From positions 106 to 64,105 of the forward strand of contig JAYUEN010000107.1 in NCBI GenBank assembly GCA_043739185.1: a stretch of 64,000 bases of DNA, written 5' to 3'. The DNA is from Bdellovibrionales bacterium (GTDB lineage: Bacteria > Bdellovibrionota > Bdellovibrionia > Bdellovibrionales > JAMPXM01). Made by a program: the position numbers and the translations under genes. Every line of letters starts with the position of its first letter. Within the stretch, counting starts at the first letter, position 1. Positions 3,095 through 49,047 of this stretch are shown in pieces. Below the pieces are notes generated by a model that saw only the letters and a program-made list of their open reading frames with translations, searched no databases and was not told where the DNA came from.

Positions 3095-3736
3095 TTAGCG
3101 CGAGGCTCCACCGGTTGCTTGAGTGTCTTCACTTTGTGGGCTGCGATCAATTGTTACTTCACCAGTCTTCGAATCATATTGAATTTCAAGATTCAAGGCA
3201 GCCGTTCGTTTTTTCAATCTTTCTAAAAAAATGGCTCGGTCTTGTTGCTCTTCACGCAAGGCCTGTTCGTAAATTGCATGATCAACTGCGAGCTCTCTCG
3301 GAATATAGACATCGGGATAAGAATTGCGATCGTCTTTAAGGCGGTCATGAATTTGAAGTTGTGTATTGGCTTCACTCGACAAATCCACGCCCTTTAATAG
3401 CCGGTCCGGAATATCTTTCGGGCCCAAATACTTTCCTGATAAACTTATCATTTCCTGCTCTTTTTTAATTTCTGCTGAAATTCTCTGATTGTTAATTTCG
3501 AGTCCTTCGACTTTTCGCTTTCGATCAAATGAGGTTTCAGGATCAATTTGACTCGTTATACGCAAGGGTCTCACCGAAGAAAAACTCGTTTGATTTTGTT
3601 GTTTATGAAATAAAAAGAGCGAGAAAAAAACCAGCCCAAATCCGAAAACCATAAATGCGATGGAGGCGAATGAAGGACTCTCCGCATTCTCACTGTTTTT
3701 CGCAGTCTTGAGATTGGTTTTTTGTTTGTCAGGCAT
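3095..3736 (-). CDS. Membrane-anchored hypothetical protein
   Basis: 213-aa ORF with one N-terminal TM helix (FASIAFMVFGFGLVFFSLFLF) and a charged helical C-terminal part. No recognisable family. Confidence 0.5.
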   Translation of the reverse strand: MPDKQKTNLKTAKNSENAESPSFASIAFMVFGFGLVFFSLFLFHKQQNQTSFSSVRPLRITSQIDPETSFDRKRKVEGLEINNQRISAEIKKEQEMISLSGKYLGPKDIPDRLLKGVDLSSEANTQLQIHDRLKDDRNSYPDVYIPRELAVDHAIYEQALREEQQDRAIFLERLKKRTAALNLEIQYDSKTGEVTIDRSPQSEDTQATGGASR

Positions 3737-3786
3737 TGATCTTTATCGGCCAAAGCGCCAGTTAACTTGACTAAGATGAGTCTTGC

Positions 3787-5775
3787 TCAAGCCTGTCCTG
3801 GACCGGCAATGGGTAAAAGTATCTTAAATTCGGTCCCCTTCTCGATAGTAGAGGTGACCAAAATATCGCCATCATGCTTTTTGACGATTCCATAAGAAAT
3901 ACTCAGGCCGAGCCCGGTGCCTTGACCCACGGTCTTTGTGGTAAAAAATGGGTCAAAAATTTTCTCTAAAGTGTCTCCCGGGATGCCCTTGCCGGAGTCC
4001 CGAATGCTAATCTCTACAAAATTGTTTTTAAGAATTCTCGGATTCTGAATTGAGGATTTACTGGCAGATTTAAGGTTGGTCTTGATCCAAATATCGCCCT
4101 TGCCTTCAATGGCTTGAGCCGCATTTGACAGAATATTCATAAACACTTGATTGATTTGACTCGCGTAACACATAACCTCAGGAAGTTCGGCAAACTCTGA
4201 GTGGACTTCAATTCGACCCTTGATCTCGCCAGACAATAATTTCAATGTGGCCTCGATACTTTCCTTTAAGTTCACGGACTTCAACTTAGCCTCTTCAAGG
4301 CGAGAAAAGTTCCTGAGTCCCAAGACAATATCCCGAGTTCTGCGGGCGCCATCTTCACAAGAATTTATCAATTTGGGCATATCTTGAACGATGAAATCAA
4401 AATCGATTTTAGCTTTTAATTCAGCTAATCTTTCTGGGTTCTTTTCGGTGTCTTCAATAAGCTGCAAAAGTTTTTGCGAATACTCCCGCAGATGATTCAT
4501 ATTGCTAAAAATAAATCCGATGGGATTGTTCAACTCATGGGCCACGCCGGCAACGAGTTGACCAAGACTTGCCATTTTAGCTGAATGAACCAGACGGGAT
4601 TGCGTATCTTTTAGTTCAGAATAAGCCGCCTCTATTTCTTTGATTTTCTTCTCTAAGTCTGTGCGTGCTTGTTTTACGCTCTTCACCATTTCATTGAAAC
4701 TATCGGCAAGAAGACCAATTTCATTTTCGCTTGATACTGAAATTTCGACGGCCTCTCCTCGGCGGTTCATCATTTGGGTGGCCTGAACCAATTCATTGAG
4801 CGGACGCATGACAGTACGTGCAGACAAAAAGGCCATAATCAATACTAAAAAAGCAATTGCAACCAACATCGTAAAGAAAGCATAGTTTACGTTTTTCATT
4901 GTGGCTTTCGACTTTTCTTTCGATGCACCGACACCAACGAAGATTTTTTCTTCTCCCCATGAGATGGGCGCAATCATAAATCCAAATGGCTCATCTCTCA
5001 CAACTATATCAAATATGCTATTTCCTGCGTTTAATACTGAATTTTTCAAAGACTCTTGCGGATAGAGAAGAAAGTCAGGATGGCTGGCCGCAACTATTGC
5101 GCCTTTGCCATCAAATAAAATGAGTTCAAGACTCAGGCGTTTTTTGATTCCCTCTAAGAATGAACTTCCCAGATTTATGATCTCTTCAATATAACCTACC
5201 ACTTTGCCGGCGCGCTCGATTTTCGTGATGGTAACAAGATCAAAACTTTTGTCTTTCGCGGGTTGAGCCAAAAGGATTTCTCCCTTAGTGGCTACCAAAG
5301 AAAGGTAGTTTGCGGATAAGCAAATCTCCTCTCCCGACTTTGCAACTTTTGCTTCTGTACTCGCGGATTCATCTTTGTTCATGCTCGCCACTAAGCAGGC
5401 GTCTCGCCCAAAGATTGAAAGTTCTCGCAGGTATGTATTGCGCATGGATTGCAACATATGAGCTTTTGCTTGGGTCATCGAATTTGTCGCCAAATAGGTT
5501 GCGAGCAAAGTATCCGAACGATGCTCTGCAGATCTTTGTTTGAGGTAGGATTCAAAACTTGCTACCAATGCGGTGACTTCTCTGACATTTGCAGAAAGTC
5601 TCTGGCCAAGTTCGGTATTGATGGCTTTTTCAAAACGACTTACAGAGTAGCCGGTTACAAACCCCAGTGGGACTACAGACAATAAGAGAAACCAAATGAT
5701 CAAAATCGTTTGCAACGACTTGCGAGGTTTCTTCAATTTGTGCTCGTTTAAATTTTGATTTTCATTCATTCGCAC
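3787..5775 (-). CDS. Sensor histidine kinase (two TM helices, periplasmic sensor domain, HAMP, HisKA, HATPase_c)
   Basis: H-box GVAHELNNPIGFI, HAMP-like segment (RPLNELVQATQMM ... LADSFNEMVKSV) and G-boxes DSGKGIP and GTGLGLSISYGIV. It has no receiver domain. Its start overlaps the upstream gene by 14 nt. Confidence 0.9.
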   Translation of the reverse strand: MRMNENQNLNEHKLKKPRKSLQTILIIWFLLLSVVPLGFVTGYSVSRFEKAINTELGQRLSANVREVTALVASFESYLKQRSAEHRSDTLLATYLATNSMTQAKAHMLQSMRNTYLRELSIFGRDACLVASMNKDESASTEAKVAKSGEEICLSANYLSLVATKGEILLAQPAKDKSFDLVTITKIERAGKVVGYIEEIINLGSSFLEGIKKRLSLELILFDGKGAIVAASHPDFLLYPQESLKNSVLNAGNSIFDIVVRDEPFGFMIAPISWGEEKIFVGVGASKEKSKATMKNVNYAFFTMLVAIAFLVLIMAFLSARTVMRPLNELVQATQMMNRRGEAVEISVSSENEIGLLADSFNEMVKSVKQARTDLEKKIKEIEAAYSELKDTQSRLVHSAKMASLGQLVAGVAHELNNPIGFIFSNMNHLREYSQKLLQLIEDTEKNPERLAELKAKIDFDFIVQDMPKLINSCEDGARRTRDIVLGLRNFSRLEEAKLKSVNLKESIEATLKLLSGEIKGRIEVHSEFAELPEVMCYASQINQVFMNILSNAAQAIEGKGDIWIKTNLKSASKSSIQNPRILKNNFVEISIRDSGKGIPGDTLEKIFDPFFTTKTVGQGTGLGLSISYGIVKKHDGDILVTSTIEKGTEFKILLPIAGPGQA

Positions 5776-17546: not shown

Positions 17547-17825
17547 ATTTTGTAGGATTCAATACAGGGCCAGTGCTTTTGCTTGCGAAATTTGACCTGA
17601 ACAAAAGAGCTTGTTATGATTTGGGTAAGGTATCTGTGGCATTATGCACAGAAGTAAAGAAACCCTACAAGTATAGAGATAGGGGACCGTCCCTGGAAAT
17701 GGTGTGCAAGCTCTGCCTTCGGGACCAGAGAAGCCTAAAGTTTCTATCATGGTCACCCACCTTAACAAATACGGGTTTCTCATTTCTGTTTGCGCCACAG
17801 GTCCCTATTTTTTTTAAAACAAAAT
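17547..17825 (+). ncRNA. Candidate 6S RNA (SsrS-like), unusually long
   Basis: A non-coding 646-bp gap contains, in the same order and with similar spacing as E. coli 6S RNA (recalled from memory), GGGCCAGT (17567), CCAGAGAAGCCTAAA (17725-17739), CACCTTAAC (17758) and GGGTTT (17773). An irregular closing stem is possible: 17566-17576 with 17794-17806, and 17547-17553 with 17819-17825. Boundaries are approximate. Confidence 0.4.
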
Positions 17826-36324: not shown

Positions 36325-37317
36325 CTATAAATTCATTTTGTAATTAGCTTCAAAATCCGCAATTTGGGTGCCCGCATAAAGTTGCTTTATCGTTTTGAAA
36401 ACCATGTCCTCATCAGAAATCCAAAAAGCTTCTCGGCGCGAGACTTCAAGATTACGCGCCTGCTCCTCTAAAACACGAAAATCCTGCCTGACCAAAATCC
36501 CGGTAAAGAATTTGAACATTGGCTTTTTTACTAATCTAAAAAACCCGGCTTTTTTAAATTGAAAAACCAGTGACCCGGCGCTCATCCTTTCCTTTCTTTC
36601 GCTTACAAAAAGACTAACTCTTAAATCCAGGCCTGCCGGGCTCCAGTACTCCAGTACGGCCACATCCGGATGAAAATACTTGCCAATTGTTTTGCTTCGC
36701 TGGCCTTCAAATATTTGACTGATGATACCCTTCGGGGTGGCTTCATTTAAATATTCAACCGAAAGGCATTGCTCCGTTGATTGATAGCGTGCCTTTACGT
36801 CTACCGAAACCCGATCACTCGAAGCTCTCAAAAAAGGCGCATGAATATAATGGGTATGAAGTGGATCAAGTAAGTTTTCTAGAATATGAATTTTCTGCGC
36901 CTTAATGCTGCAGCTATGACGAAAGCCGTCCATCTCTGCTTCTTCGAGGTTGGTCATCCAAGTCGGCAAAGCGGTTTCCGAATGATCTGAAATAAAAAGC
37001 AGTTCGCCAAAATTTCGAATCGCAAAACTCTTCAAACAAAGTTTTGGTGTCAGACCTTCGACAAAGCCAGGCCGCGCCAGGAGATTCCCTAGAGAATCAA
37101 AGCTCCAGCCATGATAGGAGCATTTTAAGTTGTACTCCTCGCCTGTTTTTTCAAGCAGGCCCTCACTCAGCGGAAAGCCGCGATGCGGGCAGTAGTCTAA
37201 AAATGCGCGATAAGTTTTCTTTACTTGGAATACAACAATCGCCTGTCCTTTAAAAAACAAGCGATTGGGGCGACCTTCTACTAAGTTTTTCGAATCCTCC
37301 AGAAAATGCCAGCTCAC
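36325..37317 (-). CDS. Rieske [2Fe-2S] non-heme-iron oxygenase
   Basis: Rieske ligands CPHRGFPL ... CSYHGWSF and mononuclear iron motif DPLHTHYIH (D-x2-H-x4-H). It starts 3 nt after the stop of the upstream 470-aa gene. Confidence 0.85.
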   Translation of the reverse strand: MSWHFLEDSKNLVEGRPNRLFFKGQAIVVFQVKKTYRAFLDYCPHRGFPLSEGLLEKTGEEYNLKCSYHGWSFDSLGNLLARPGFVEGLTPKLCLKSFAIRNFGELLFISDHSETALPTWMTNLEEAEMDGFRHSCSIKAQKIHILENLLDPLHTHYIHAPFLRASSDRVSVDVKARYQSTEQCLSVEYLNEATPKGIISQIFEGQRSKTIGKYFHPDVAVLEYWSPAGLDLRVSLFVSERKERMSAGSLVFQFKKAGFFRLVKKPMFKFFTGILVRQDFRVLEEQARNLEVSRREAFWISDEDMVFKTIKQLYAGTQIADFEANYKMNL

Positions 37318-37320
37318 AGA

Positions 37321-38733
37321 TTACTTTGCTCCAAATCCTCCGGCGACATCATTGAGCACGCGCAAGCTTCGTGCGATCGAATCCGAATCGGTGGTTTCGA
37401 AGTATTGCTGGTAAATTTCGGTATTCCAAGCTTTTGCGCTCCCTTGATGAAAATTTCGATACTCAACTGCTTTGGTTCCCTCTTTAAGTTCAAGATTCAC
37501 CGTGTTTTTATATTTCATGTCAAAATCATTCGGAAAAAACTTTTTCAAATCTTCTGGCGCTTCATTGTTGAAGACCTTGGGCAAATATACTTTCGCGGTT
37601 TTGCCGGTCACTAAACTTCGCACCATTTTGCCCGCAAATAAGCGTTCAAGATTAGCAAGATAAAGATCGGCCGTTGATTTATCAAGACTGATCAGTGCAT
37701 TTGGCAAAGAAAAGCCTGCGTTGGCAGGACGGGCTTTGAGACCACTCCAGGCATCGGTCATGCGATCCAAAGCTTCTCCTATATAGACACCCGCCTCTGT
37801 CATAAACTTTTGACCAATATTTTCTTTTTTATTTAGCTTCCAAAGTTTGGCGTTTTGGGGCTTCTGAAGAAGTTTATAAATCTCATCTCCCGTCACCCCG
37901 TCAACGGCTAGAAATGTACCCTTAACAAAAGCATCGAAGCCGTAAAGGCCACCCACTTGCTTGGCAAAATCTAGAGCACCATTCTGATTATAAGCACATA
38001 AAAAATCCATACTTGCTACGCTTAAATCATATTGAGCAATTAGCAGTTGCAATTCCTCAGTGCCAAAGCTCAGTTCGCGATTCAAGCCATCAGCAAAAGA
38101 GTCTGCACCTGCAGAGATACGACGATCCCACTTAAATACGCGCGCATTCGAAATTTGATTAAGCGCCGAAATGAGATCGTTGGTTTTCATTCGAAGCGTA
38201 TCATTAATAAAAGTCTGAATTGCGGCCTCGTTTTCGATTTTGCCAACAAGGACGCCCTCAATCTCGAAGGGACTTGCCAAATAATCTAAGAGTGCGCCAG
38301 AGGCCTGAGCCGGACTAAAGAGGCTGATGCCGGCTACATTTTGTTTTATAAAAGACACGATGAGCGATTGAATATTGTGATTATCCGCAGAGCCTCTTTC
38401 GAAAAAGGGTCGTACTCGCCAAAAAAAGCCACGCACAGCCTCTAAATAGATGAGGTGTGCATTTAAAAACTGCGCCGACGGATCGTGAATCTTCGCGCGA
38501 TTCGCCTTAGCAGATTCTATTAAAGCTTGAAAATCATTTGCGGTCTTTGCATCCAAAACTTTTTTAACCAATTGTTCGTATTCGCTCTCAGAAGACGGCG
38601 TTCGTTTTTCTTCTTCTGCTTTGGCCTGTGCCTTTTTATAGCCCGGGGCCTGCAGTCCCCGCCAAATCAAATCTTCTGACTTTGCGGCCGCCAATACGGG
38701 CACTAACAAAAGCATCAAAAACAATTTTTTCAT
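37321..38733 (-). CDS. Secreted hypothetical protein
   Basis: 470-aa ORF with signal peptide MKKLFLMLLLVPVLAAA. No recognisable family. It is tightly coupled to the Rieske oxygenase gene. Confidence 0.6.
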   Translation of the reverse strand: MKKLFLMLLLVPVLAAAKSEDLIWRGLQAPGYKKAQAKAEEEKRTPSSESEYEQLVKKVLDAKTANDFQALIESAKANRAKIHDPSAQFLNAHLIYLEAVRGFFWRVRPFFERGSADNHNIQSLIVSFIKQNVAGISLFSPAQASGALLDYLASPFEIEGVLVGKIENEAAIQTFINDTLRMKTNDLISALNQISNARVFKWDRRISAGADSFADGLNRELSFGTEELQLLIAQYDLSVASMDFLCAYNQNGALDFAKQVGGLYGFDAFVKGTFLAVDGVTGDEIYKLLQKPQNAKLWKLNKKENIGQKFMTEAGVYIGEALDRMTDAWSGLKARPANAGFSLPNALISLDKSTADLYLANLERLFAGKMVRSLVTGKTAKVYLPKVFNNEAPEDLKKFFPNDFDMKYKNTVNLELKEGTKAVEYRNFHQGSAKAWNTEIYQQYFETTDSDSIARSLRVLNDVAGGFGAK

Positions 38734-38839
38734 TTCAATTCTCCTGGTTTTAAAAAGTCAGAATATCTTAAATCTAACACTAGTAGAATCCTCTATGCAT
38801 TTTAATTTACAAACATGGTCGATGGTTGGGCCCAGCTAA

Positions 38840-40567
38840 CTATTTTTTAAAAACATACTGGCCCAGCACCAGCATATCGAGACCCGAAGTGAAAAATACC
38901 GCAAGCGCATCTTCAACATCGTGAATAATCGGACGGCCCATGACATTGAAGCTCGTATTGAGCAGGACCGGGACTTTGGTCTTTTTATAAAAGCTATTGA
39001 GCAAAGCATAAAATCTTGGATTGTCTTCTTTTCTCACGCTTTGCACTCGCCCCGTTTCGTTGCAATGCACGACTGCAGGGGCGATTTCGGTGTTCTTAAA
39101 CCTCAATGTTCTCTCCATATAAGGAGAGTATTGATAGTTGTGAAAAAGCTCGGGGCCCTTTTCATCTAGAATACTCGGCGCAAAAGGCCTGAACTCTTCT
39201 CGAAACTTAATGCGTTCATTGATGTGATCCTTGGTCTTGGCTTTTCGGGGATCAGCCAAAATCGAGCGATTGCCAAGTGCCCGCGGACCAAACTCCGCCC
39301 GACCTTGTACCCAACCTACAAGCTTTCCTTCTGAAAGTTCTTTTGAAACCTCCTCAATCAATTCGTTTTCACTGAAAAATTTAGCCTTTAGGCCTCCGAG
39401 TCGTATGGCGCGTTCAATTGTTTCTGTTGAAATCTCTGAACCTAAAAATGCGGTATGTGCATTGAGTGGTCGTTGTTTCGGATGATCTTTCATCCAACTC
39501 AAATAAGCCGAACCGATTGCATTTCCGTCGTCACCGGGCGCCATTGAAATATGCAAATTTTTAAATGGCGTTCTCTCCAAAAGGACCCCATTACAAGATG
39601 AGTTGAGTGCACAGCCTCCGCCCAAAATGAGATTGGCGCCACCCCATTTACTGTGAACCTGCACAAGTAACTCACACATCAATTCTTCAAAAATCGCTTG
39701 CCCTGCGAAAGCGAGATTGGCCGCCTCAAGGGGACTTCGAAACTTTTCTCGGAGACTTAGGAGTTTCGTGAGTTGCTCGGCATATCGCGGGGACTTCTGA
39801 ATGCTCTGATTTTTAATTTTTAGCAGAGATCGACATAAATTTTCATATTCACTTTGCATTTTTCCATAAGGGGCGAGGCCCATCACCTTCCACTCTTCGC
39901 CGGCAAGTGGATCAAAGCCGCAGGCCCAACAAACCGCCGCATAAAAAAGACCCAAACTTGCAAAATCAGCAAAGCTCTTGGTTTTGATTCTTTCGATCTT
40001 GGCGTTTTCAAATGAAAAAATCGCCTGGCTCGTAGCTTCACCTGCGCCGTCAACTATCACGCAGATTGCATTATCAAACGGACTCGAATAGCACGCCGTT
40101 GCTGCATGACAAAGGTGATGTTCCCAGCCTATTTTTTTCAAGTTTTGCAACTTCTTCATTTCAAAAAGACGATATTCTAGATTCAATAGCATATCGCGAT
40201 TGTTGATAGGGGCTCCGTACATAGCTTGGCGAAAGGAGTGGGTCTCCATTTGTTGGCCCAATTGAGAAAAGCGCGCATGAAAGCTCGCTTGCAAATTCAA
40301 TATTTTTTTTGTTAGCCAGGACCATTTGAGAATGTCATCTGACCAAGAAAGTCCGGCAACTATTGGCCCATCATTGACATACTTTTTCAAAATACCATCT
40401 AAAAATAGTACAGGGTCCGGAGAAGTATTCCAGGCGCGCTTGTTTTTTAAAACTCTCTCATTGGCTTCGGCAAATAGCAACTGACCGGCTTCATTCAGAA
40501 CTGCAATTGCAGAATCATGTGAAGTGGTGCCAAAACCTAAATATGTCGCCATGCTTGCAATTCCCAT
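38840..40567 (-). CDS. Carbamoyltransferase (NodU/CmcH family)
   Basis: N-terminal YLGFGTTSHDSAIAVL (ASKHA-like carbamoyltransferase N domain), the C-terminal signature RAEFGPRALGNRSILADPR and LNTSFNV. Confidence 0.85.
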   Translation of the reverse strand: MGIASMATYLGFGTTSHDSAIAVLNEAGQLLFAEANERVLKNKRAWNTSPDPVLFLDGILKKYVNDGPIVAGLSWSDDILKWSWLTKKILNLQASFHARFSQLGQQMETHSFRQAMYGAPINNRDMLLNLEYRLFEMKKLQNLKKIGWEHHLCHAATACYSSPFDNAICVIVDGAGEATSQAIFSFENAKIERIKTKSFADFASLGLFYAAVCWACGFDPLAGEEWKVMGLAPYGKMQSEYENLCRSLLKIKNQSIQKSPRYAEQLTKLLSLREKFRSPLEAANLAFAGQAIFEELMCELLVQVHSKWGGANLILGGGCALNSSCNGVLLERTPFKNLHISMAPGDDGNAIGSAYLSWMKDHPKQRPLNAHTAFLGSEISTETIERAIRLGGLKAKFFSENELIEEVSKELSEGKLVGWVQGRAEFGPRALGNRSILADPRKAKTKDHINERIKFREEFRPFAPSILDEKGPELFHNYQYSPYMERTLRFKNTEIAPAVVHCNETGRVQSVRKEDNPRFYALLNSFYKKTKVPVLLNTSFNVMGRPIIHDVEDALAVFFTSGLDMLVLGQYVFKK

Positions 40568-40669
40568 TTTATTTTCTCAAGTTGACATTCTACTTCATTT
40601 TGCAAGAATGCCAAGCGCGGGCTGGTTACTTTTTTGGGAACCGCGCCATAAGCGATCGCGAGATTTAAT

Positions 40670-42802
40670 TTGAACTCATTAATCCGTCGTTTTTACTTTC
40701 ACTTTACTAGGCGAAAACTTCAGGCTGTGTTTGCGGCGCTTCTATTGATTTTTTTATCGCTCCCAGCATTGCAATTGAAATTCAAGACTGAAATAAAGGA
40801 TTTGCTAGAAGGCAACTCGCCTGAGGTCTCGCAATACAAAGAAAATCTTAAGCTTTTTCAGCCTGCGAATCGCTTGATTGCTCTTTTGTCAAAGCGCGAT
40901 CAAAGCGTTTGGCGTGAAGCGGATTTGATAAATCTCAAAACCTGGATAACTGAAACAAAAGCTCAATACAAATTTGTAGAAAATATCCTTTCACCCTTAT
41001 CCATACGAACCGCCGTCTTTGATTCAAAAAAATCGCAATTGAACTTCCCCCTGATTCTCCATCCTGAGGGCTCAATCCAAACGCTAGATTGGGACCGCTT
41101 TTCAACTTCGTACTGGGCTCCTTTCTTCTTGGGAAATGATCGCAAAAGTCTCATTTTGAGTTTTACTTTGAACAGCCAAGCCGGCCCGCCAGAACTGAAA
41201 TTACTCACACAAATGAAGGACGCTCCGGGAAATTTTACGATGGCGTGGACTGGCGACCAAATTTTCAAACTCTTTTCTGAAAATGCTATGAAGAAAATGT
41301 CTTGGTTGAATCTCATTGGCGTTTGCGCTCTCTTTGCATTTATCTGTTTGCTCTTCTCAAGTTGGACCGCTGGTCTTTTCACTATTCTTTCGGTTCTCTT
41401 GGGAATTCTGCCGATATTTGGCTTCATCGGGCTCGCCGGACAGGCTATAGATTTGCTCACCTCGAATTTGTTTTTACTCTTATTGATTGCCACCATTGAA
41501 GACGTCTTATTGGTTTTTTATTTTAGCGCTAAAAAGAATACTTCGATAGAAAGGAGCCTCGAAGAATTACTTCTGCCGTGCTTTTATACTTCACTAACGA
41601 CGGCAGTGGCTTTTGGCAGCCTGGGTGTTTCAGAAATTCCGATGGTTCGTCAATTTGCTTTATGGAGTAGTCTCGGTGCGTTTACCGAATGGTTTGTCGT
41701 CTTCTTTGTTGTTCCTGAACTCTTAAACAATTTTAAAAGGCAACGGCTTGAACTACTTTGGCTTCCTCGGATGCCAATATTTAAATTTAAGGCCCTCTCT
41801 TTTTGGATTAAAATTCTTTTGCTGCCCCTCGTAGCAGCACCAATATTGATATCAAAACTCAATTATAACGCCAGCCCGTTTGACATATTTAATTCGAATC
41901 ATCCGGTTCTTCACGTAAGAGAGAAATTGAGTGAAAGTCGCCATTGGGAAAATTCAATAGAAGTGGTTTTTTCAAATGATTTGCCAGTAAACACTGAAAA
42001 GTCCCTATTGTTACAAATGCAAAGTATTTCAAATATAAGCTGGATCGAACACCCTTATTTGATGCTCGAAGATTCGCTCACAAATGAGCTCTCTGCAGAA
42101 ATGAAAGATCTTGCTTTGAGCCAACTGCAATTCTCAGACTATGCAAAAAAATATTTCGCGGAAAACCGCCACCGCGGATTTTTATATATTCAAAATTCAG
42201 ACATGCCCTCCGTATCGCAAACCAAACAGCAGCTAGAGCAAATTTGTAATGAGCGCTGTCATATAACCGGAGAGCTGATTGCCTTTGGCGAATATTCTCG
42301 CGCCTTGGTTCGAACACTAAGCGAGAGTTTCATTTTCAGTTTGTTTTTAATATTAGTGGTTTTGTTTCTAATCTGTCGGCAGCTGAATATAAGCCGCCTG
42401 CACTTTATCTTTGCTTCCGTTCTTTGGGGCCCCTGCATGATGGTTTTGTTTTTCTTTTTTACCCATACTGCCGTTAGCTTAGTGAATTGCATTTTGCTTT
42501 CAACGGTTGTTGGTCTTTCTGGCGACTTCATGATTCAAGTCATGTTCAATCAAAAGCAAGGCTCCCTGGAGACCTCACTCGCCGCTTTTGGGCCTGCAAG
42601 TATGCTTTTGACCTTTCTTTTGGTGGGCTTGTGCGTCCCTTTTCTGTGGTCGCCTTTCGGAAATGTTCAAACCACAGGTTGGTTGCTGATGTTGAGCATA
42701 TTTTTAATTTCAATCGGAGATGTGCTGATTTTTAAACTGCTTTTGAGTTATAATTTGAAAATTTTCAAAAGCGGAAGCGCAATTGAAAACAATAAGGCTT
42801 GA
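40670..42802 (+). CDS. MMPL/RND-superfamily membrane exporter
   Basis: 710-aa ORF (TTG start) with two blocks of multiple TM helices separated by soluble loops, an architecture typical of predicted MMPL-type exporters. Its 3' end overlaps the convergent acyltransferase-like gene by 55 nt. Confidence 0.65.
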   Translation: MNSLIRRFYFHFTRRKLQAVFAALLLIFLSLPALQLKFKTEIKDLLEGNSPEVSQYKENLKLFQPANRLIALLSKRDQSVWREADLINLKTWITETKAQYKFVENILSPLSIRTAVFDSKKSQLNFPLILHPEGSIQTLDWDRFSTSYWAPFFLGNDRKSLILSFTLNSQAGPPELKLLTQMKDAPGNFTMAWTGDQIFKLFSENAMKKMSWLNLIGVCALFAFICLLFSSWTAGLFTILSVLLGILPIFGFIGLAGQAIDLLTSNLFLLLLIATIEDVLLVFYFSAKKNTSIERSLEELLLPCFYTSLTTAVAFGSLGVSEIPMVRQFALWSSLGAFTEWFVVFFVVPELLNNFKRQRLELLWLPRMPIFKFKALSFWIKILLLPLVAAPILISKLNYNASPFDIFNSNHPVLHVREKLSESRHWENSIEVVFSNDLPVNTEKSLLLQMQSISNISWIEHPYLMLEDSLTNELSAEMKDLALSQLQFSDYAKKYFAENRHRGFLYIQNSDMPSVSQTKQQLEQICNERCHITGELIAFGEYSRALVRTLSESFIFSLFLILVVLFLICRQLNISRLHFIFASVLWGPCMMVLFFFFTHTAVSLVNCILLSTVVGLSGDFMIQVMFNQKQGSLETSLAAFGPASMLLTFLLVGLCVPFLWSPFGNVQTTGWLLMLSIFLISIGDVLIFKLLLSYNLKIFKSGSAIENNKA

Positions 42803-43836
42803 AGAATTCGAAAGCCAATTCGGCGTGGCCATGACAAATGCTTTATATAAACGGCGCTGTACTCAATCACTGGCCGCCCCCCGCGCAGCCGCTTAAATTC
42901 AGAGGCTCCAGAGCTCAAATTAACTAGGAGCTTGCGCTCTTTTGCATACCGAAGCGCCAGCGCAATCAAGAGCCGGTAAAGACCTTCTTTTTGCGGCCGT
43001 CGAGTATCATAACCTACAATTGGCACAGTCAATACTTCGTCCACAATAAAATACCCCACGACCCCTTGCAGCTCACCCTTCTCGTCTCGCAAGCCAAAGA
43101 GCTTCATGACCCCAGACTCTTGGCAAAGCTTGAGATAGCTTGCTGAAAAGGCCGGGTTATACTGCGAATATTTTTCTAAATAAAGCAAAGCATATAGCTC
43201 TTCACTGCGCTGAAAATCCTGATCTGAGAACTCAGTGCCGTTTACGATTTGCAAACTGCTGCGATCTAATAGTTTTTGATCGCGAAACATATTTTTCGAC
43301 TTGATCTGTTGACCAATTCGAAAATCGAAAAAGTATACCTGCCGCGAAGGAATCAAGCTAAATCCGAGCCGACGAAGTCCGTGGATCAGGTCGGCATTCG
43401 TAAAGTAATTCAGCGAGCGGAAAATTATAAAATGTTGATCGGCTTTTCGAATACTTTCTTTTGCCCATTCAGAAAATGCCGTTTCGGAGTTTTTGGGGTA
43501 GAGATTAGTTGATAGTAACCAATTGTTAATGCTTATAGACTGATTCAGCCGCATAGCTTTCAGCAAATAGGATAGGGGCAACAAGATGAGTCCTAAAAGC
43601 CCGAGTATCATTGGTAGCTTTTTCAGCTCTTGACGTGAATACAGTATGAGCGCCGAGTACGGTGATACCACATAAGAAGCGTTGAACTCGGCAAAGTTGG
43701 CCGTACTAGGCGACCAGAAATCTTTCTTCTGACTCCAACTCAATTGAGTCATGACGTTTGGAATCAATTTTTGGATTTCTTCCTTGCCGACAAATTTACT
43801 TCGAAATTCGGAGTGCGGCCAATTTTTATCAGCCAT
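42748..43836 (-). CDS. FemAB/CelD-like GNAT-fold acyl/aminoacyl-transferase (putative)
   Basis: The C-terminal block GELQGVVGYFIVDEVLTVPIVGYDTRRPQKEGLYRLLIALALRYAKERKLLVNLSSGASEFKRLRGG resembles the CelD/FemAB-type acetyltransferase domain. It is the last gene of the six-gene operon. Confidence 0.45.
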   Translation of the reverse strand: MADKNWPHSEFRSKFVGKEEIQKLIPNVMTQLSWSQKKDFWSPSTANFAEFNASYVVSPYSALILYSRQELKKLPMILGLLGLILLPLSYLLKAMRLNQSISINNWLLSTNLYPKNSETAFSEWAKESIRKADQHFIIFRSLNYFTNADLIHGLRRLGFSLIPSRQVYFFDFRIGQQIKSKNMFRDQKLLDRSSLQIVNGTEFSDQDFQRSEELYALLYLEKYSQYNPAFSASYLKLCQESGVMKLFGLRDEKGELQGVVGYFIVDEVLTVPIVGYDTRRPQKEGLYRLLIALALRYAKERKLLVNLSSGASEFKRLRGGRPVIEYSAVYIKHLSWPRRIGFRILQALLFSIALPLLKIFKL

Positions 43837-44968
43837 TGTATTCGAAGTCCTCAGATGAGATTTGCAATACCGATTTTTTTGAACCCAATGAAATTAAAAT
43901 AAATTGTGCAAACGAAATATACTGCCCGAACATCGGCAAAGGATCTTTAAAATCCCAAGTCATATCTTTTCCGCGAACCAGATCATTATAAAATTGTATC
44001 CAACGACTTGGCAGAAAGCTCATTGGTGTAGCATAAATTACCATTGCCGCCGCTAGCATACGGGGCTGCCTACGGTCGGCAAAAAGAATACCTTTATTTA
44101 AATTGAAAAAACAATCCGTCAAACGGCTATCAAAAAAACTCACCCCACTTGTCGCCCGAGGGTTGCATTCGAGCAGCCAAAAGTTTTGATCGTGCTGATC
44201 GAGGATTAAATCAAAAGCAACCTGACCGTGAAACTCATTTTTATGCGCGAACTCGATGCAAAAATTCAACAGGCGCTCATCATAAAAAGCTTCTAAATAA
44301 ATTCCGGCTCCTTGGCCGACTCGAAAAGTAGGTCGATACGCACAGAAAGCCTTGAGCTCTCCCTTAAAACAAACGGCATAAATGCAAACCTCAAGACCCT
44401 TTTTCTTGAGTTGTGCTACCCAACTTCCCTGGGACCAATCAAGCGTTTGCGCAAGCTGGTCTTCGCTCGGACCAATAATCGTTTTTGCCGCAAACCTTGA
44501 GTAAACCGGTTTGAAAACAAAGTTCTCAGACTTTAACTTTAATTGCTGCCAATCGGCTGCAGACGTCAACAGAAATGTCTCGGGGGTTTGAATCGACCAA
44601 GCTTGAGATGCTTGAGAAAAGAACATTTTGTTGTGTAGACTCTCGAGTTTTTCGAAATGATCACAAAAAATAGCATCCATTTTCATTTGATTCTTAAGTT
44701 TTGCGAAATAAAAGACCTCTTCGCAAGTCGGAACAATTAGATCATAATGATTTTCGCTTTGAAGCTTCATAATTTTTTCGGCGAATTCATTAAAAGCAAA
44801 GCGTGGCGACGGGCTTTTATAAAACTTTCTAACACGAGAAGAAAATCGGGCCATCGGATAGTTGATCGACTCAACAATATCGACCCTACTGTTCTGATCA
44901 AAAAATTGTCTCGTCAGTGCGAGACTTACTGGAGCCCTCGCTCCGGCAATTAGGATTTTGTTTGCCAT
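43829..44968 (-). CDS. ATP-grasp ligase
   Basis: N-terminal pre-ATP-grasp Rossmann-like KILIAGARAPVSLALTR and C-terminal ATP-grasp motif FWLLECNPRATSG. It overlaps the upstream gene by 19 nt. Confidence 0.7.
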   Translation of the reverse strand: MANKILIAGARAPVSLALTRQFFDQNSRVDIVESINYPMARFSSRVRKFYKSPSPRFAFNEFAEKIMKLQSENHYDLIVPTCEEVFYFAKLKNQMKMDAIFCDHFEKLESLHNKMFFSQASQAWSIQTPETFLLTSAADWQQLKLKSENFVFKPVYSRFAAKTIIGPSEDQLAQTLDWSQGSWVAQLKKKGLEVCIYAVCFKGELKAFCAYRPTFRVGQGAGIYLEAFYDERLLNFCIEFAHKNEFHGQVAFDLILDQHDQNFWLLECNPRATSGVSFFDSRLTDCFFNLNKGILFADRRQPRMLAAAMVIYATPMSFLPSRWIQFYNDLVRGKDMTWDFKDPLPMFGQYISFAQFILISLGSKKSVLQISSEDFEYNG

Positions 44969-46245
44969 AAATTTACTATTCTTTGACGCTTCATTTGGGT
45001 CGGCAAAAACTCTTCGTTTGCCAATATACTAATTTTAAGCCAATCCGCCTTTTTCGATACTAAAACTTCTTTAAGTTTCAATCTGAGCTCGGTCTCTTCG
45101 GTTGGACTCAACGTCTTATCGAGTGTGATCTGAATTTCACACGGCCCGCGCTGTTCAACTCGGTAATTCCAATTGAAACAGTTTTGAGAGCCCATAAATT
45201 GTCTAAAAAAATCAGGAAAAAACTCTCGCTTTTCTCCCCACTCACTTTCAAAACTTAGAATTTGATCTGCACGTCCTTCAATAGCACTCAATGCCAAACT
45301 CGGATTGCCGCAGGGACATGGATTTTGGCCAGCTCTAAGTATATCATCAAGTTGATAACGTATGATTGACTGCGTTTTTCGCTTCACATCTGAAATAATT
45401 GGTAAAAATCGGCCTTCCGAAATTTCCTTCTTCTCAATGATATAGAGCCCTTCATTTAAATGAATTTGGCCGTAACGACAGGACACGCCCAAAAAGCCTT
45501 CTGTTGCCTGATATATTTCTAAGAACTGGCAATCGTTATCGCAGCTAAAATAGTCTTTAATTCGAATTCTCTCTCTCGTCTCAAGCACATCTGCTCCACA
45601 TAAAACAAAATGCGGGTGAATATCAGCCCTTGGAACAAGATTCATATATTTTAAATAAAAATTGGGCACGGACATTAAAACACTTGGCCTGAAATTTTTC
45701 AGCTGTGTGGCGGTTTCTTCTATCGGGGCGTTGAGATTGAAAAATTTGAGTTTCAGCCAACCCAAATTGATACCATCGTAAAGACTGCTGTGGGTGCGAA
45801 AGACAAAGGCGATGTTCTGTTTCTTAAAGAAGGACCAGCCCAGAATCTTAGCCAAAATCGCGCCCGCCCAAAGCCCGACTTCACGAGAGTTCAAAATAAA
45901 CACACCCCGCTTGCCAGAGGTGCCGGTCGACAGTCCAATAGTCAAATGGGCTTTCTTTTTCAGATAGTCACCGCTATTTTCAAGCTTCTCGCAAAATTGG
46001 TAAGCCTCTTCTAAACCGATTCCTGGCAGATTGAATTGCTCGAAGTCTTTTAAATATTTTGCCTTATCAATGATAGGGATTTCTTCCCAGTTTTTGATTT
46101 TTTGTCTTTGATAGTATTTGTAGCTTGTAAGTCGCTTTAAAATGTTTTTTTTGTTTCTTAATTTCGAGCGCTCTAGAGCCGCCAAAGATTTTGCAGAAAA
46201 AAACATTTCTCGAAAAAATGAAAGCAACATCCAAAGTGCTGTCAT
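44950..46245 (-). CDS. Adenylate-forming enzyme (coenzyme F390 synthetase / PaaK / CapK-like)
   Basis: P-loop-like AMP-binding motif STGTSGKRGVF, with ATEG and a C-terminal small domain. The start is placed at ATG 46245, which forms an ATGA overlap with the MBL gene stop. The ORF-track start is 46284. Confidence 0.7.
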   Translation of the reverse strand: MTALWMLLSFFREMFFSAKSLAALERSKLRNKKNILKRLTSYKYYQRQKIKNWEEIPIIDKAKYLKDFEQFNLPGIGLEEAYQFCEKLENSGDYLKKKAHLTIGLSTGTSGKRGVFILNSREVGLWAGAILAKILGWSFFKKQNIAFVFRTHSSLYDGINLGWLKLKFFNLNAPIEETATQLKNFRPSVLMSVPNFYLKYMNLVPRADIHPHFVLCGADVLETRERIRIKDYFSCDNDCQFLEIYQATEGFLGVSCRYGQIHLNEGLYIIEKKEISEGRFLPIISDVKRKTQSIIRYQLDDILRAGQNPCPCGNPSLALSAIEGRADQILSFESEWGEKREFFPDFFRQFMGSQNCFNWNYRVEQRGPCEIQITLDKTLSPTEETELRLKLKEVLVSKKADWLKISILANEEFLPTQMKRQRIVNLWQTKS

Positions 46246-47084
46246 TCGAGGCCGCCACTCAATTTCAGAAAAGTTTCTATACAATGCGAGGGAATCAGCT
46301 GAAGTTCAGGTTGTTTCAAATACAAAGTGTGAATTTTCGAAAAAGTTTTGAGATACTCTTTTGAACTATCAAAGACGAGTCCGGCCACACGCGGAGGTGG
46401 CCGCATTTCTCTCAATGCTTTGAGGCTCCAAGAAGCGTCGGCAATCATAAAACATTTACCATTTTTTTCGGAATTGAAAACCAAGCCAACTTGTCCTTCT
46501 TTATGGCCAGGAAGATCAATCGCAATAAGCGACCCATCTCCGAATAAATCGGCCCCTGAAAATACGAATTGACTGGCCGCTTGTCCGCTCCATGTTCTGC
46601 AGTCATCAATCCAAACAACTCGCTTTAGGAAATCCTTTGGCAAAAGATGTGGAAGATACGCATTGAGCAAATTTCGCCATGCACTTTTGCCATAATTGTT
46701 TTGAAAGGCACTCTTGCGACATAAAAATTTTGCCTTTTTAAAATCTTTTAAGCCCGCAATATGATCTCCATGAAAATGCGATATGACAATCCAGTTTACC
46801 TCAGCCGGAGCGATGCCGCGCGTTTTCAGCTGCTGGGCCGCCGTCTGATTTTTTGAAATAAAACCCGGACTAATGAGTGGGTAGATATTCTCTGGCCATT
46901 TGACTCTACGATTGTATTCGGGGTGGTAGCCGGTATCAAAAAGTATAACGCCCTCTTGAGGATGCCGAATGATTGCAAACAGCGAAGGAAACTCACAAGA
47001 CCGAAAAGACCCATTTTTCATACTGAGAATCTCGGGGTGACGACAAAAGCCCGCCTTACAAAGTTCAAACTCTAATCTTTTCAT
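46242..47084 (-). CDS. Metallo-beta-lactamase-fold hydrolase
   Basis: HxHxDH motif ISHFHGDHIAG, with downstream His/Asp ligands (LPGHKEG, DASW). It forms an ATGA overlap with the SDR gene. Confidence 0.85.
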   Translation of the reverse strand: MKRLEFELCKAGFCRHPEILSMKNGSFRSCEFPSLFAIIRHPQEGVILFDTGYHPEYNRRVKWPENIYPLISPGFISKNQTAAQQLKTRGIAPAEVNWIVISHFHGDHIAGLKDFKKAKFLCRKSAFQNNYGKSAWRNLLNAYLPHLLPKDFLKRVVWIDDCRTWSGQAASQFVFSGADLFGDGSLIAIDLPGHKEGQVGLVFNSEKNGKCFMIADASWSLKALREMRPPPRVAGLVFDSSKEYLKTFSKIHTLYLKQPELQLIPSHCIETFLKLSGGLE

Positions 47085-48061
47085 GTGAACGTCCTTAAGC
47101 CTTTTATTTCTGACAGGGCCTCAAACACCGACTGAGCGGGTCGATACCCCAATTCACTTTTAATTTTGCCAATGTCAAAGCTTTGGCTTTTCGAAATGAG
47201 ATCGAGCGAATAGCGGCTCAGTGGTGGTTCATGATCTGTAATTTTTGCCCAGGCTTTTTCGAAAAGAGGCGCAAAAAAATTGAGCGGAGCACTTTTTAGT
47301 GGAACCCACTTCACCTTTAAATTCAGATTTTTGGCCACCGCAAACAATAACTCACGAATGAGAATGGGCTCGTCATTCGTCAAATTGTAAAGCTCTCCGG
47401 AACGTTCTGCGGGCGCAAGCATCGCGAGCTCAACTGCCGCACAAATACTTGCAACCGGGGTCAAATCAATGCTCGCCATACCTTCATCAATAAGCGGAAA
47501 AAAACCCTTGTTCATAAGCTTTAATATTCGCGGCAAGAGTGTTTGATCATAAAGACTTATGATCGCACGTGGGCGCAGCGTGATCACCGAAAGTCCTTTC
47601 TTATAAAACTCATTGGCAATTTTTTCGCTCTGAAGCTTGGTCGAGGCATAACTCGTTTTTTGCTCTCGAGGCAATGGTGAGGCCTCAGTTAAATTGGTCC
47701 GGCTGGTGCCATCATAATAAACGGATGTAGTTGATATATGAATGACTCGCTTAACGTTGGCCGCGGCCGACCATTCGAAAAGCCTTCGACTCGCAATGAG
47801 GTTTGGCGCTTCAAAATCAAGGGGTGGTCCCCAGGGGCGAGTCAGCGCCGCAGAATGAATGACAAAATCGGCACGCAAAAATTCTTTGGCCAAATTCTCT
47901 TCACAGAGATCGGCCCGAATGGTTTTTATGCCTTTACTGCTTAAATATTCGAGGCGTTTTGTTTGGCGCCCAATGGCCACAACTTCATATTTCTTTTCAT
48001 GCAGATTTAAGCAAAGTGGCAAACCCAAAGATCCTGTGGCGCCAGTGACAATGACCTTCAT
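47081..48061 (-). CDS. NAD(P)-dependent epimerase/dehydratase-family extended SDR
   Basis: Rossmann motif MKVIVTGATGSLG and catalytic YASTK (YxxxK). It forms a TAATG overlap with the KAS III gene. Confidence 0.85.
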   Translation of the reverse strand: MKVIVTGATGSLGLPLCLNLHEKKYEVVAIGRQTKRLEYLSSKGIKTIRADLCEENLAKEFLRADFVIHSAALTRPWGPPLDFEAPNLIASRRLFEWSAAANVKRVIHISTTSVYYDGTSRTNLTEASPLPREQKTSYASTKLQSEKIANEFYKKGLSVITLRPRAIISLYDQTLLPRILKLMNKGFFPLIDEGMASIDLTPVASICAAVELAMLAPAERSGELYNLTNDEPILIRELLFAVAKNLNLKVKWVPLKSAPLNFFAPLFEKAWAKITDHEPPLSRYSLDLISKSQSFDIGKIKSELGYRPAQSVFEALSEIKGLRTFT

Positions 48062-49047
48062 TAGTAAACCAAAATGCTTCCGCTTATTGAGATGCCCGCG
48101 CCCGTTCCAATTAGAAGAATTTTATCTCCGCGCTTGGCCTTCTCTTTAAGACAATTGTCGAGAGCTATTGGTAATGATGCGGACACCTGATTGCCATGAG
48201 TTTGAATGATATTAATCAGTTTTTCATCTGCAAAATCGAGCTTTCGGCTCAATTGCAATATCGCTGTAGGACTCGCTTGATGTGGAACCACCCAATCAAT
48301 TTCAGAAAGTTGCAGATTGGCTTTTTTCAAAAGCTGAGAAACAAATTGTGGCAGATACCGAGAGGCCAATTTGTAAATGCCCCGGCCCTCCATGCGAAAA
48401 AGATAATCATCGGGGTCGTCTGGCGGAGTGACAATATTGAAACGCGAGCCTCCGGCCTTGATCTCACAAAGCTTTGCACCGATCGAGTATGTATTCGAAA
48501 GGCTTGCCATGATTTTTGAAGGGCCCTGATCATCAGCCTCAACTATAACGGCAGAGGCGCCATCGGCTATGATGCTTGCGACTTCGAGCTCCTTCCAGTT
48601 GATGCCCTTGCTGCCAACTTCTGAATTGACCAAGGCGATTCGGTGGTAACGTTTTGTAATTAGAAAGCTCGCGGCCACGTCAAGAGCGGTCAGAAAACTC
48701 GTGCATGTTGAATTGATATCAAAACAAGGAATGCCGGAGTCCCCAAGTCCCATTTTGTGATGAAGTAAGACCGCGGTAGAAGGAATGGGCTGCTCAGGCA
48801 TGGCTCCACCAAAAATGATGAGATCTAAATCTGTGGCCTTAAGGCGGGAACACTCAAGTGCCGAAGCAAGTGCCTTGGCTGCCATTTCTGAAATGGTTTC
48901 GTTCTCTGAAACATAGCGATGTTCGACATCAAAGTGCTCAAGCCCAATCTCTCTTTGTAAACTTTGACTGCTTTTCTCATGGGCCTGCTTAGCAGTGAGG
49001 CTGGTTTTAGGGAGATACACTCCCGTTCCTAAAATTTTTGTATTCAT
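48061..49047 (-). CDS. 3-oxoacyl-ACP synthase III (FabH-like KAS III)
   Basis: The Cys-His-Asn triad contexts are intact: DINSTCTSF, VPHQAS and HGNQVSAS. The C-terminal GTGAGIS motif is present. It is the first gene of the six-gene operon. Confidence 0.85.
   Translation of the reverse strand: MNTKILGTGVYLPKTSLTAKQAHEKSSQSLQREIGLEHFDVEHRYVSENETISEMAAKALASALECSRLKATDLDLIIFGGAMPEQPIPSTAVLLHHKMGLGDSGIPCFDINSTCTSFLTALDVAASFLITKRYHRIALVNSEVGSKGINWKELEVASIIADGASAVIVEADDQGPSKIMASLSNTYSIGAKLCEIKAGGSRFNIVTPPDDPDDYLFRMEGRGIYKLASRYLPQFVSQLLKKANLQLSEIDWVVPHQASPTAILQLSRKLDFADEKLINIIQTHGNQVSASLPIALDNCLKEKAKRGDKILLIGTGAGISISGSILVY

Follow-up and report, generated by a model that had tools for sequence, protein, structure and literature searches.

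OleABCD and its lipstatin and nocardiolactone relatives are compact, carrier-free systems in which a thiolase-superfamily condensing enzyme is accompanied by an extended short-chain dehydrogenase/reductase (SDR), an adenylate-forming enzyme and a hydrolase. The PqsA, PqsD and PqsE enzymes of alkylquinolone synthesis in Pseudomonas likewise combine a carrier-free ANL ligase with a condensing enzyme of the beta-ketoacyl-acyl carrier protein (ACP) synthase III (KAS III) type and a metallo-beta-lactamase-fold (MBL) hydrolase that frees a beta-keto acid, and MxnB and CorB, stand-alone ketosynthases of the PpyS type, fuse two acyl chains into alpha-pyrones. MprF aminoacylates a lipid, and FemX, VlmA and Sbb17 aminoacylate amines and hydroxyls of small molecules or precursors. 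Here we analyzed a 64,000-nucleotide stretch of a Bdellovibrionales contig (JAYUEN010000107.1, positions 106 to 64,105; hereafter the window) and describe a ten-gene cluster at 36325-49047 that resembles OleABCD, PqsADE and FemX/MprF chemistry in parts and is a member of none of them. Each of its enzyme families is known; the set as a whole is conserved across Pseudomonas, Legionella, Paenibacillus, Cytophaga, planctomycetes, Opitutaceae and Bdellovibrio-like bacteria. It comprises two conserved modules, A (KAS III, SDR, MBL hydrolase and an adenylating ligase) and B (an ATP-grasp ligase, a tandem GCN5-related N-acetyltransferase (GNAT) and a Rieske oxygenase), together with lineage-specific export and tailoring genes. 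Our general model, which we regard as an evenly balanced proposition, is that 36325-49047 constitutes one biosynthetic system; its product is probably a lipid-like acyl-amino-acid molecule, the chemistry of which we infer.

The core of the cluster is a run of six minus-strand open reading frames (ORFs). Module A comes first, with the KAS III-like condensing enzyme (48061-49047, 328 aa), the extended SDR, a candidate OleD-like 3-oxo reductase (47081-48061, 326 aa), the lactonase-like MBL-fold hydrolase (46242-47084, 280 aa) and an adenylate-forming enzyme related to PaaK and F390 synthetase (44950-46245, 431 aa), and the ATP-grasp ligase (43829-44968, 379 aa) and tandem-GNAT transferase (42748-43836, 362 aa) of module B follow. 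Re-reading every junction from the sequence bore out the preliminary description of this run as one translationally coupled operon: the KAS III and SDR genes meet at TAATG (48059-48063), the SDR and MBL genes at ATGA (47081-47084) and the MBL and ligase genes at ATGA (46242-46245), while the ligase and ATP-grasp ORFs share 19 nt (44950-44968) and the ATP-grasp and GNAT ORFs share 8 nt (43829-43836). Because of the ATGA junction at 46242-46245, we place the ligase start at ATG 46245 and not at the upstream TTG 46284 of the ORF listing; a length of 431 aa also results from an independent gene call for the identical contig L081. The catalytic motifs that the same description had called intact are all present in the translations (DINSTCTSF, PHQAS and HGNQVSAS in KAS III, TGATGSLG and YASTK in the SDR, HFHGDH in the MBL protein, STGTSGKRG in the ligase and ECNPRATSG in the ATP-grasp protein). 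It also correctly placed the block between core genes, with secA on one side and a SpoU/TrmL-type methylase gene, glnB and glnA on the other, and correctly noted that carrier protein, nonribosomal peptide synthetase (NRPS), polyketide synthase (PKS), glycosyltransferase and Wzx/Wzy-type genes are absent within 36.3-49.1 kb. The widest intergenic gap in this interval is about 105 bp (about 145 bp at most), which therefore leaves no hidden carrier-protein gene.

The six genes (42748-49047) had been taken as the full extent of the system, which proved too narrow, as in this lineage it also includes four genes at 36325-42802. The first, on the plus strand, encodes a 710-aa MMPL/RND exporter of the HAE3, HpnN-like type (40670-42802; Pfam MMPL and Sterol-sensing, NCBIfam HAE3 and HpnN). 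The other three lie on the minus strand and encode a 575-aa O-carbamoyltransferase, apparently a lineage-specific tailoring enzyme (38840-40567; Carbam_trans_N and Carbam_trans_C, with NovN at 3e-62, GdmN and TobZ as closest solved structures), a putatively secreted 470-aa protein with a signal-peptide-like N-terminus and no match in Pfam, NCBIfam, PADLOC or PDB (37321-38733), and the 330-aa alpha3-type Rieske non-heme iron oxygenase of module B (36325-37317). In the window the Rieske gene is thus parted from the six-gene operon by the exporter, carbamoyltransferase and 470-aa protein genes. Close relatives keep these genes linked to the cluster: exporter homologues occur, in differing arrangements, in L001, L082, L084 and L085, and homologues of the 470-aa protein (23-43% identity) in L082, L083, L084 and L085. 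L082 has nine colinear overlapping genes, namely the six followed by the 470-aa homologue, the Rieske gene and the MMPL gene; all ten genes are present in L084 in rearranged order; L085 has the RND, 470-aa-type and Rieske genes, and L001 the RND and carbamoyltransferase genes. Given this linkage, the functional unit in the window is the ten genes at 36325-49047. The GNAT gene (minus) and the exporter gene (plus) converge with a 55-nt overlap (42748-42802), and a similar convergent overlap of about 48 nt is seen in the closest relative, L001.

We then examined distribution with a GNAT-profile scan of one genome per species. A GNAT relative is encoded in at least 531 species genomes, of which 80 loci were kept, and 58 loci with enough flanking sequence were compared for content by tblastn with the window's proteins. 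The ATP-grasp gene adjoins the GNAT gene in every one of the 58, and a Rieske homologue lies near it, usually immediately downstream, in 48. All seven genes of the two modules are found in 30 of the 58 loci, including those of Pseudomonas, Legionella, Paenibacillus, Cellvibrio, Thiothrix, Gallionella and Bdellovibrionales, and the common order is KAS III, SDR, MBL, ligase, ATP-grasp, GNAT, Rieske. The ligase alone is missing in nine loci (planctomycetes, Opitutaceae, Holophagae) and the Rieske gene alone in eight; five hold only the ATP-grasp, GNAT and Rieske trio (e.g., Legionella longbeachae), and four, from Burkholderiaceae, hold KAS III plus this trio. Legionella feeleii and Pseudomonas cichorii carry the seven genes as a self-contained operon among unrelated neighbors. 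The set is present in monoderm and diderm bacteria and survives rearrangement, as seen in Cytophaga (L088), Paenibacillus, Bacillus, Anaerosolibacter and L084. The same genes stand together in dozens of unrelated genomes, a grouping far beyond chance and often with conserved gene order; the lack of co-conservation that the preliminary description had named as a refuting outcome is therefore not seen. What had looked like a one-off inserted block is one local form of a modular cassette with a marker gene this widespread. An exhaustive profile search sized the GNAT family at 930 clusters at 50% identity (E ≤ 1e-30). Further conserved neighbors were sought among regulators, transporters, a deacetylase and a SUKH protein, and none is common beyond close relatives.

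Modules A and B are separable, and the Rieske gene goes with module B. A ligase search combined with context look-ups revealed that the KAS III, SDR, MBL and ligase genes also travel without module B. In Xenorhabdus, module A stands alone with a PAP2 gene upstream, and in Providencia rettgeri it is followed by PAP2, fatty-acid-hydroxylase-superfamily and fatty-acid desaturase genes. In E. coli, a seven-gene island between narI and tyrTV/RtT-purU, present in 674 of 5,426 complete genomes, combines module A with PAP2, sterol-desaturase-family and acyl-CoA desaturase genes; the best match of its hydroxylase (the sterol-desaturase-family protein) is the ornithine-lipid hydroxylase OlsE, its ligase scores 755 bits with TIGR02304, and we found no published characterization of the island. 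The alternative partners of module A are thus membrane lipid-modifying enzymes. One example of the island (L092, 5158-12039) lies on a sequence labelled as a plasmid, NZ_CP141085.1, that carries the chromosomal narGHJI, purU and galU region.

Other versions divide or join the modules differently. Convivina has module A and the ATP-grasp gene only, module B precedes module A in Cytophaga aurantiaca, and both modules occur without the Rieske gene in Anaerosolibacter, Sporomusa and on a conjugative Bacillus mycoides plasmid. A locus from a metagenome-assembled genome (L090) encodes PAP2, KAS III, SDR and an MBL::ligase fusion (P0257, 713 aa, 3157-5298), and natural ATP-grasp::GNAT fusions form 750-aa proteins (P0377, P0488 and P0366). 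Judging from these fusions and linkage patterns, the MBL protein works with the ligase, and the ATP-grasp protein with the GNAT protein. The strict anaerobes Sporomusa aerivorans (L069) and Anaerosolibacter carboniphilus (L091) are among the carriers of a Rieske-free cassette, and the missing gene in the anaerobe versions fits an O2-dependent, dispensable late tailoring step. On the conjugative Bacillus mycoides plasmid p237 (L093), the six-gene version lies beside an IS6 transposase gene, and on the megaplasmid pMPPla107 of P. amygdali pv. lachrymans (L094) genes for an ATP-grasp homologue and a ligase of the F390-related type are embedded among dozens of hypothetical ones. Both contexts are suggestive of horizontal mobility. 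In a transposon screen of Pseudomonas syringae pv. actinidiae, the list of reduced-virulence mutants includes one in IYO_RS29540, which is annotated 'Coenzyme F390 synthetase' and is a candidate member of the cassette (PMC9823363).

Searches with hidden Markov models (HMMs) upheld the family calls for the six-gene set, with refinements for the KAS III, SDR and MBL proteins, and all enzymes except the ligase fail the curated cut-offs of their nearest characterized families. The condensing enzyme has Pfam ACP_syn_III (3e-18) and the C-terminal domain (1e-24) and stays below the FabH cut-offs (336 vs 402 bits for PRK07204, 210 vs 249 for PRK09352 and 188 vs 292 for TIGR00747). In an alignment of 69 cluster-linked orthologues, the triad residues Cys115 and His256 are invariant and Asn286 is kept in 68. 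Conserved features of FabH are the CoA/ACP-contact motifs SDEWIxxRTGI (Trp32, Arg36) and Arg249, and also Phe87'. When aligned with Aquifex FabH and a provisional E. coli FabH sequence, the KAS III protein lacks SDEWIxxRTGI and the Arg249 equivalent; the Phe87 position is aliphatic (I, L, M or V) in all 69 orthologues, with an acidic residue just before it in 52. Its best solved relatives over the full length are MxnB (4v2p, 1e-54) and CorB (4yuc, 1e-51), followed by FabHs at 1e-46 or weaker, PqsD at 6e-19 and OleA (3row, 3s21) at about 5e-11. Like MxnB and CorB, it has the Cys-His-Asn triad, a GGSR loop and a C-terminal GTGxGxS motif. The loop was considered as a synapomorphy of this group and found not decisive, as Aquifex FabH lacks it and E. 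coli FabH, in the provisional sequence, has a loop of similar length. The enzyme thus keeps its family assignment, and on its motifs we judge that it is not a canonical FabH; chain priming in the FabH sense, one of the roles first named for such enzymes, is therefore not assured.

These features invite another reading of module A, to which we give a rather low probability, as a non-orthologous analogue of OleABCD, lipstatin and mycolate logic. The KAS III would join two acyl chains head to head without decarboxylation and the SDR would reduce the 2-alkyl-3-oxo product; the adenylating enzyme would cyclize or activate the 3-hydroxy acid via a beta-lactone or other lactone, on which the MBL protein would act, and module B would esterify or amidate the branched lipid with an amino acid before export by the MMPL protein. 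The missing FabH contact motifs, the aliphatic Phe87 position with its frequent acidic neighbor, the nearness to MxnB and CorB and the common GTGxGxS motif speak for such a condenser, which is for now a lead from sequence comparison. The enzyme is FabH/MxnB-like and not OleA, however, and its identity to MxnB/CorB (33-41%) is near that with FabH (30-36%). MxnB and CorB, moreover, draw on ACP-bound chains from giant PKS/NRPS lines, none of which is encoded in the block.

The SDR (Pfam Epimerase, 3Beta_HSD and NAD_binding_4) is homologous to OleD and provides a link to Ole-type logic. In NCBIfam it is matched best by the two models for OleD (2-alkyl-3-oxoalkanoate reductase), both over the full length (1e-39 and 3e-36), and the E. 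coli orthologue also matches OleD best (4e-45). The score nevertheless lies far below the family cut-off (136 vs 580 bits), and the next match, HpnA, is likewise under its own. Lipstatin carries N-formyl-leucine, an amino-acid ester that recalls the product proposed here, and MmpL3 exports mycolates, to which the linked MMPL transporter offers a parallel. Compared with OleABCD, the cassette adds the ATP-grasp, tandem GNAT and Rieske proteins, its ligase is of the PaaK/F390 branch and not the OleC branch, and it has an MBL-fold, lactonase-like hydrolase in place of the alpha/beta-hydrolase OleB.

The MBL protein (Pfam Lactamase_B, HFHGDH motif) finds its best NCBIfam and PDB matches in the acyl-homoserine lactone lactonases AttM, AhlS and GcL and in 4-pyridoxolactonase; thioesterase-type MBL proteins (glyoxalase II, PqsE) are not among the matches listed for it. 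The thioesterase role first suggested for it therefore lost ground, and a lactonase-like hydrolase that is fused to the adenylating enzyme in P0257 suits the lactone intermediate of the Ole-type reading. The ligase passes the cut-off of TIGR02304 ('F390 synthetase-related') with 284.2 vs 251.9 bits, aligning over residues 20-441 of the 444-aa ORF with model positions 6-429 of 430. It has no Pfam AMP-binding match, and its only solved relatives are the distantly akin phenylacetate-CoA ligases (8e-7). TIGR02304 is a TIGRFAMs equivalog of which the window ligase is a member; the family has a name and no assigned reaction, so membership does not explain the function.

The KAS III, MBL and ANL-ligase combination also parallels pqsA, pqsD and pqsE, and a second alternative, in our estimate fairly unlikely, follows that logic. 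The ligase would make the CoA ester of an unusual (e.g., aryl or branched) starter, the KAS III would extend it with malonyl-CoA or malonyl-ACP, the SDR would reduce the beta-keto group, the MBL protein would free the acid as a thioesterase, and the ATP-grasp and GNAT proteins would attach amino acids. The outcome would be an N-acyl amino acid or dipeptide, small and soluble, that might serve as a signal or antibiotic, and not an envelope lipid. In line with this are, beyond the gene parallel, PqsD as a detectable relative of the condensing enzyme, phenylacetate-CoA ligases as relatives of the ligase, the Pseudomonas and Legionella seven-gene operons without exporter or membrane enzymes, and a patchy distribution that includes plasmids, typical of secondary metabolism. 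Yet PqsE and PqsA are not among the listed MBL and ligase matches, which are lactonase-type and PaaK/F390-type. The ligase gene follows the MBL gene, and together with the MBL::ligase fusion this suggests a ligase that acts after hydrolysis and not on a starter; the order of action probably differs from that of the Pqs enzymes, and the later steps are unrelated. The membrane lipid enzymes that partner module A in Enterobacterales, and the planctomycete, Opitutaceae and Holophagae versions without a ligase, also sit poorly with this alternative. Sequence alone does not decide between the Ole-like and the Pqs-like versions.

Module B is built on the ATP-grasp and GNAT pair. The ATP-grasp protein matches PRK06849 with 300 bits, under the cut-off of 406, and its AlphaFold model (pLDDT 94.6) aligns in Foldseek with L-amino-acid ligases (3vot, 4wd3), PurK, PurT, PylC and CPS at 11-15% identity and TM 0.5-0.65. 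E267 and N269 of ECNPRATSG are invariant among 25 homologues, and on its predicted fold and E-x-N motif we take it as a genuine ATP-grasp enzyme. For the GNAT protein, Pfam searched up to E ≤ 10 gave no match, including none to FemAB (PF02388) or DUF2156 (PF09924), and a PDB profile search gave nothing significant; its homologues carry PF13480 (CelD/BioF2-like GNAT), one of them with a weak match to PF04339 (FemAB_like). Its model (pLDDT 91.9) is predicted to adopt a tandem GNAT fold that superposes best on the aminoacyl-tRNA-dependent MprF synthase domains, FemX/FemABX, VlmA and Sbb17/Sba18 (TM 0.41-0.50, with probability 1.00 for MprF, FemX and Sbb17), compared with TM 0.27-0.36 for acetyl-CoA-dependent tandem GNATs. 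It differs from MprF and FemX in lacking significant sequence likeness to them, in having PF13480 and not FemAB/DUF2156 as its family's Pfam signature, and in being always paired, and sometimes fused, with an ATP-grasp protein. A conserved transmembrane helix was considered for the GNAT family and discarded, since hydrophobic helices are confined to the window's lineage, and among the loci inspected no aminoacyl-tRNA synthetase paralogue turns up repeatedly next to the cluster. The third member of the module has Pfam Rieske (7.5e-17) and VanA_C domains, with intact CPH...CSYH (Rieske center) and DPLHTHYIH (mononuclear iron site) motifs, and its nearest solved relatives are SxtT, SxtDIOX, DdmC and KshA.

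Peptidoglycan side chains are made by FemX-type enzymes and certain ATP-grasp ligases, and the GNAT fold resembles FemX and MprF, so the genes could conceivably add an acyl or aminoacyl group to an envelope polymer or precursor (peptidoglycan, glycan or lipid A) and make no free metabolite. The SDR also weakly matches sugar-nucleotide epimerases and dehydratases, and a polysaccharide deacetylase gene follows the Rieske gene in two Burkholderiaceae loci. Even so, we hold this very unlikely: neither the block nor the set of genes recurrent among loci includes a glycosyltransferase, flippase, polymerase or nucleotide-sugar gene, the cassette occurs in monoderms and diderms with very different envelopes, the SDR best matches lipid reductases and not sugar enzymes, and the deacetylase is confined to those two closely related loci. 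The preliminary description had offered an amino-acid-substituted glycan beside a carrier-independent acyl-amino-acid route. The glycan alternative gained no backing, as sugar-activating, glycosyltransferase and Wzx/Wzy genes are neither in the block nor recurrent, and the general idea of the acyl-amino-acid route stands, with the FemX/MprF-like fold, the linked MMPL gene and the lipid-enzyme partners in its favor.

Under the acyl-amino-acid model, KAS III condensation followed by keto-reduction by the SDR would yield a 3-oxo and then a 3-hydroxy acyl unit, and no dedicated carrier would be needed. The MBL protein might release or ring-open an ester, lactone or thioester intermediate, and the ligase could convert the freed carboxylate back to an activated form, an adenylate (or CoA ester). 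Module B would then join this unit, by amide or ester linkage, to one or two building blocks of the amino-acid type, with the ATP-grasp protein presumably acting via an acyl-phosphate and the GNAT using an aminoacyl-tRNA or acyl thioester. The Rieske oxygenase may next hydroxylate the product, and in this lineage the hydroxyl would probably be O-carbamoylated by the NovN/GdmN/TobZ-like enzyme, before the MMPL/RND transporter and the secreted 470-aa protein move the lipid-like product to the envelope. We infer the reaction order and substrates, and also that the product is a lipid and is exported. The gene content and coupling, enzyme families, folds, co-conservation, modularity and fusions on which the scheme builds are observed directly. 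Gene order in most loci fits the proposed reaction order, and the carbamoyltransferase is closest to natural-product O-carbamoyltransferases. A lipid product is hinted at because the SDR is closest to OleD, because module A is operonic with PAP2, OlsE-like hydroxylase and acyl-CoA desaturase genes in Providencia and E. coli, and because, in the lineage of the window, the cluster is linked to an MMPL exporter that has a sterol-sensing domain.

Several points weigh against this scheme. No member of the cassette has an assigned product, substrate or phenotype. With identities to MxnB/CorB so close to those with FabH, the KAS III could be an ordinary primer enzyme and may act as a decarboxylative one using the housekeeping ACP, and the MBL protein, akin by sequence to lactonases, gives a thioester-release role no specific backing. 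The ATP-grasp protein has no meaningful PDB sequence match and no close characterized relative, and at TM of about 0.5 fold likeness cannot tell an aminoacyl-tRNA donor from an acyl-CoA donor for the GNAT. A reductase partner for the Rieske protein is not encoded locally, and the carbamoyltransferase gene accompanies the cluster in L001 and L084 and not in L082 or L085, hence in only some close relatives. Because the GNAT family has no conserved transmembrane helix and the Pseudomonas and Legionella seven-gene operons have no exporter, a soluble product is also possible.

Searches of openly available full-text papers returned no product for this gene set and no description of it, in agreement with the earlier view that no characterized pathway matches it. 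Among papers that mention 'F390 synthetase', those on Pseudomonas and ladderane lipids were not relevant and the others, by title, concern methanogens, F420, sulfate reducers or phenol degradation; papers on aminoacyl-tRNA-synthetase-like peptide synthesis and tRNA-deacylase-guided mining turned out to describe other systems. With a cassette this widespread and no assigned product found, some common metabolite or lipid of bacteria has probably yet to be described. A pathway without carrier proteins, NRPS or PKS is expected to escape standard genome mining, and an ATP-grasp protein paired or fused with a FemX/MprF-like transferase would be a new mode of acyl-amino-acid bond formation. The boldest version, which we consider unlikely, is that the cassette is a previously unrecognized, widespread route to a new class of envelope lipids. 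Module A would be a convergent counterpart of Ole and mycolate enzymes that makes 2-alkyl-3-hydroxy or lactone lipids without a carrier, and module B would aminoacylate the lipid, possibly from aminoacyl-tRNA. The MMPL protein would export it in Bdellovibrio-like bacteria, and PAP2, hydroxylase and desaturase enzymes would process the same lipid core in about 12% of complete E. coli genomes. Small modules in tractable hosts, namely clinical strains of E. coli, Pseudomonas cichorii and the conjugative plasmid of Bacillus mycoides, make these ideas directly testable.

We also considered an anti-phage defense system and rejected it, as the ten proteins gave no PADLOC match at E ≤ 0.001. Rfam returned no riboswitch or leader RNA for the ten-gene cluster or for seven loci related to it, and a promoter and terminator scan gave counts in the region that are not above shuffled expectation. 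Where the RND and carbamoyltransferase genes diverge, the 102 bp that separate them (40568-40669) hold one sigma-70-like site per strand, each with 10/12 matches. Away from the cluster, a 6S (SsrS) RNA gene lies at 17628-17807 on the plus strand (RF00013, 64 bits) and is the only match in the window to reach an Rfam gathering score.

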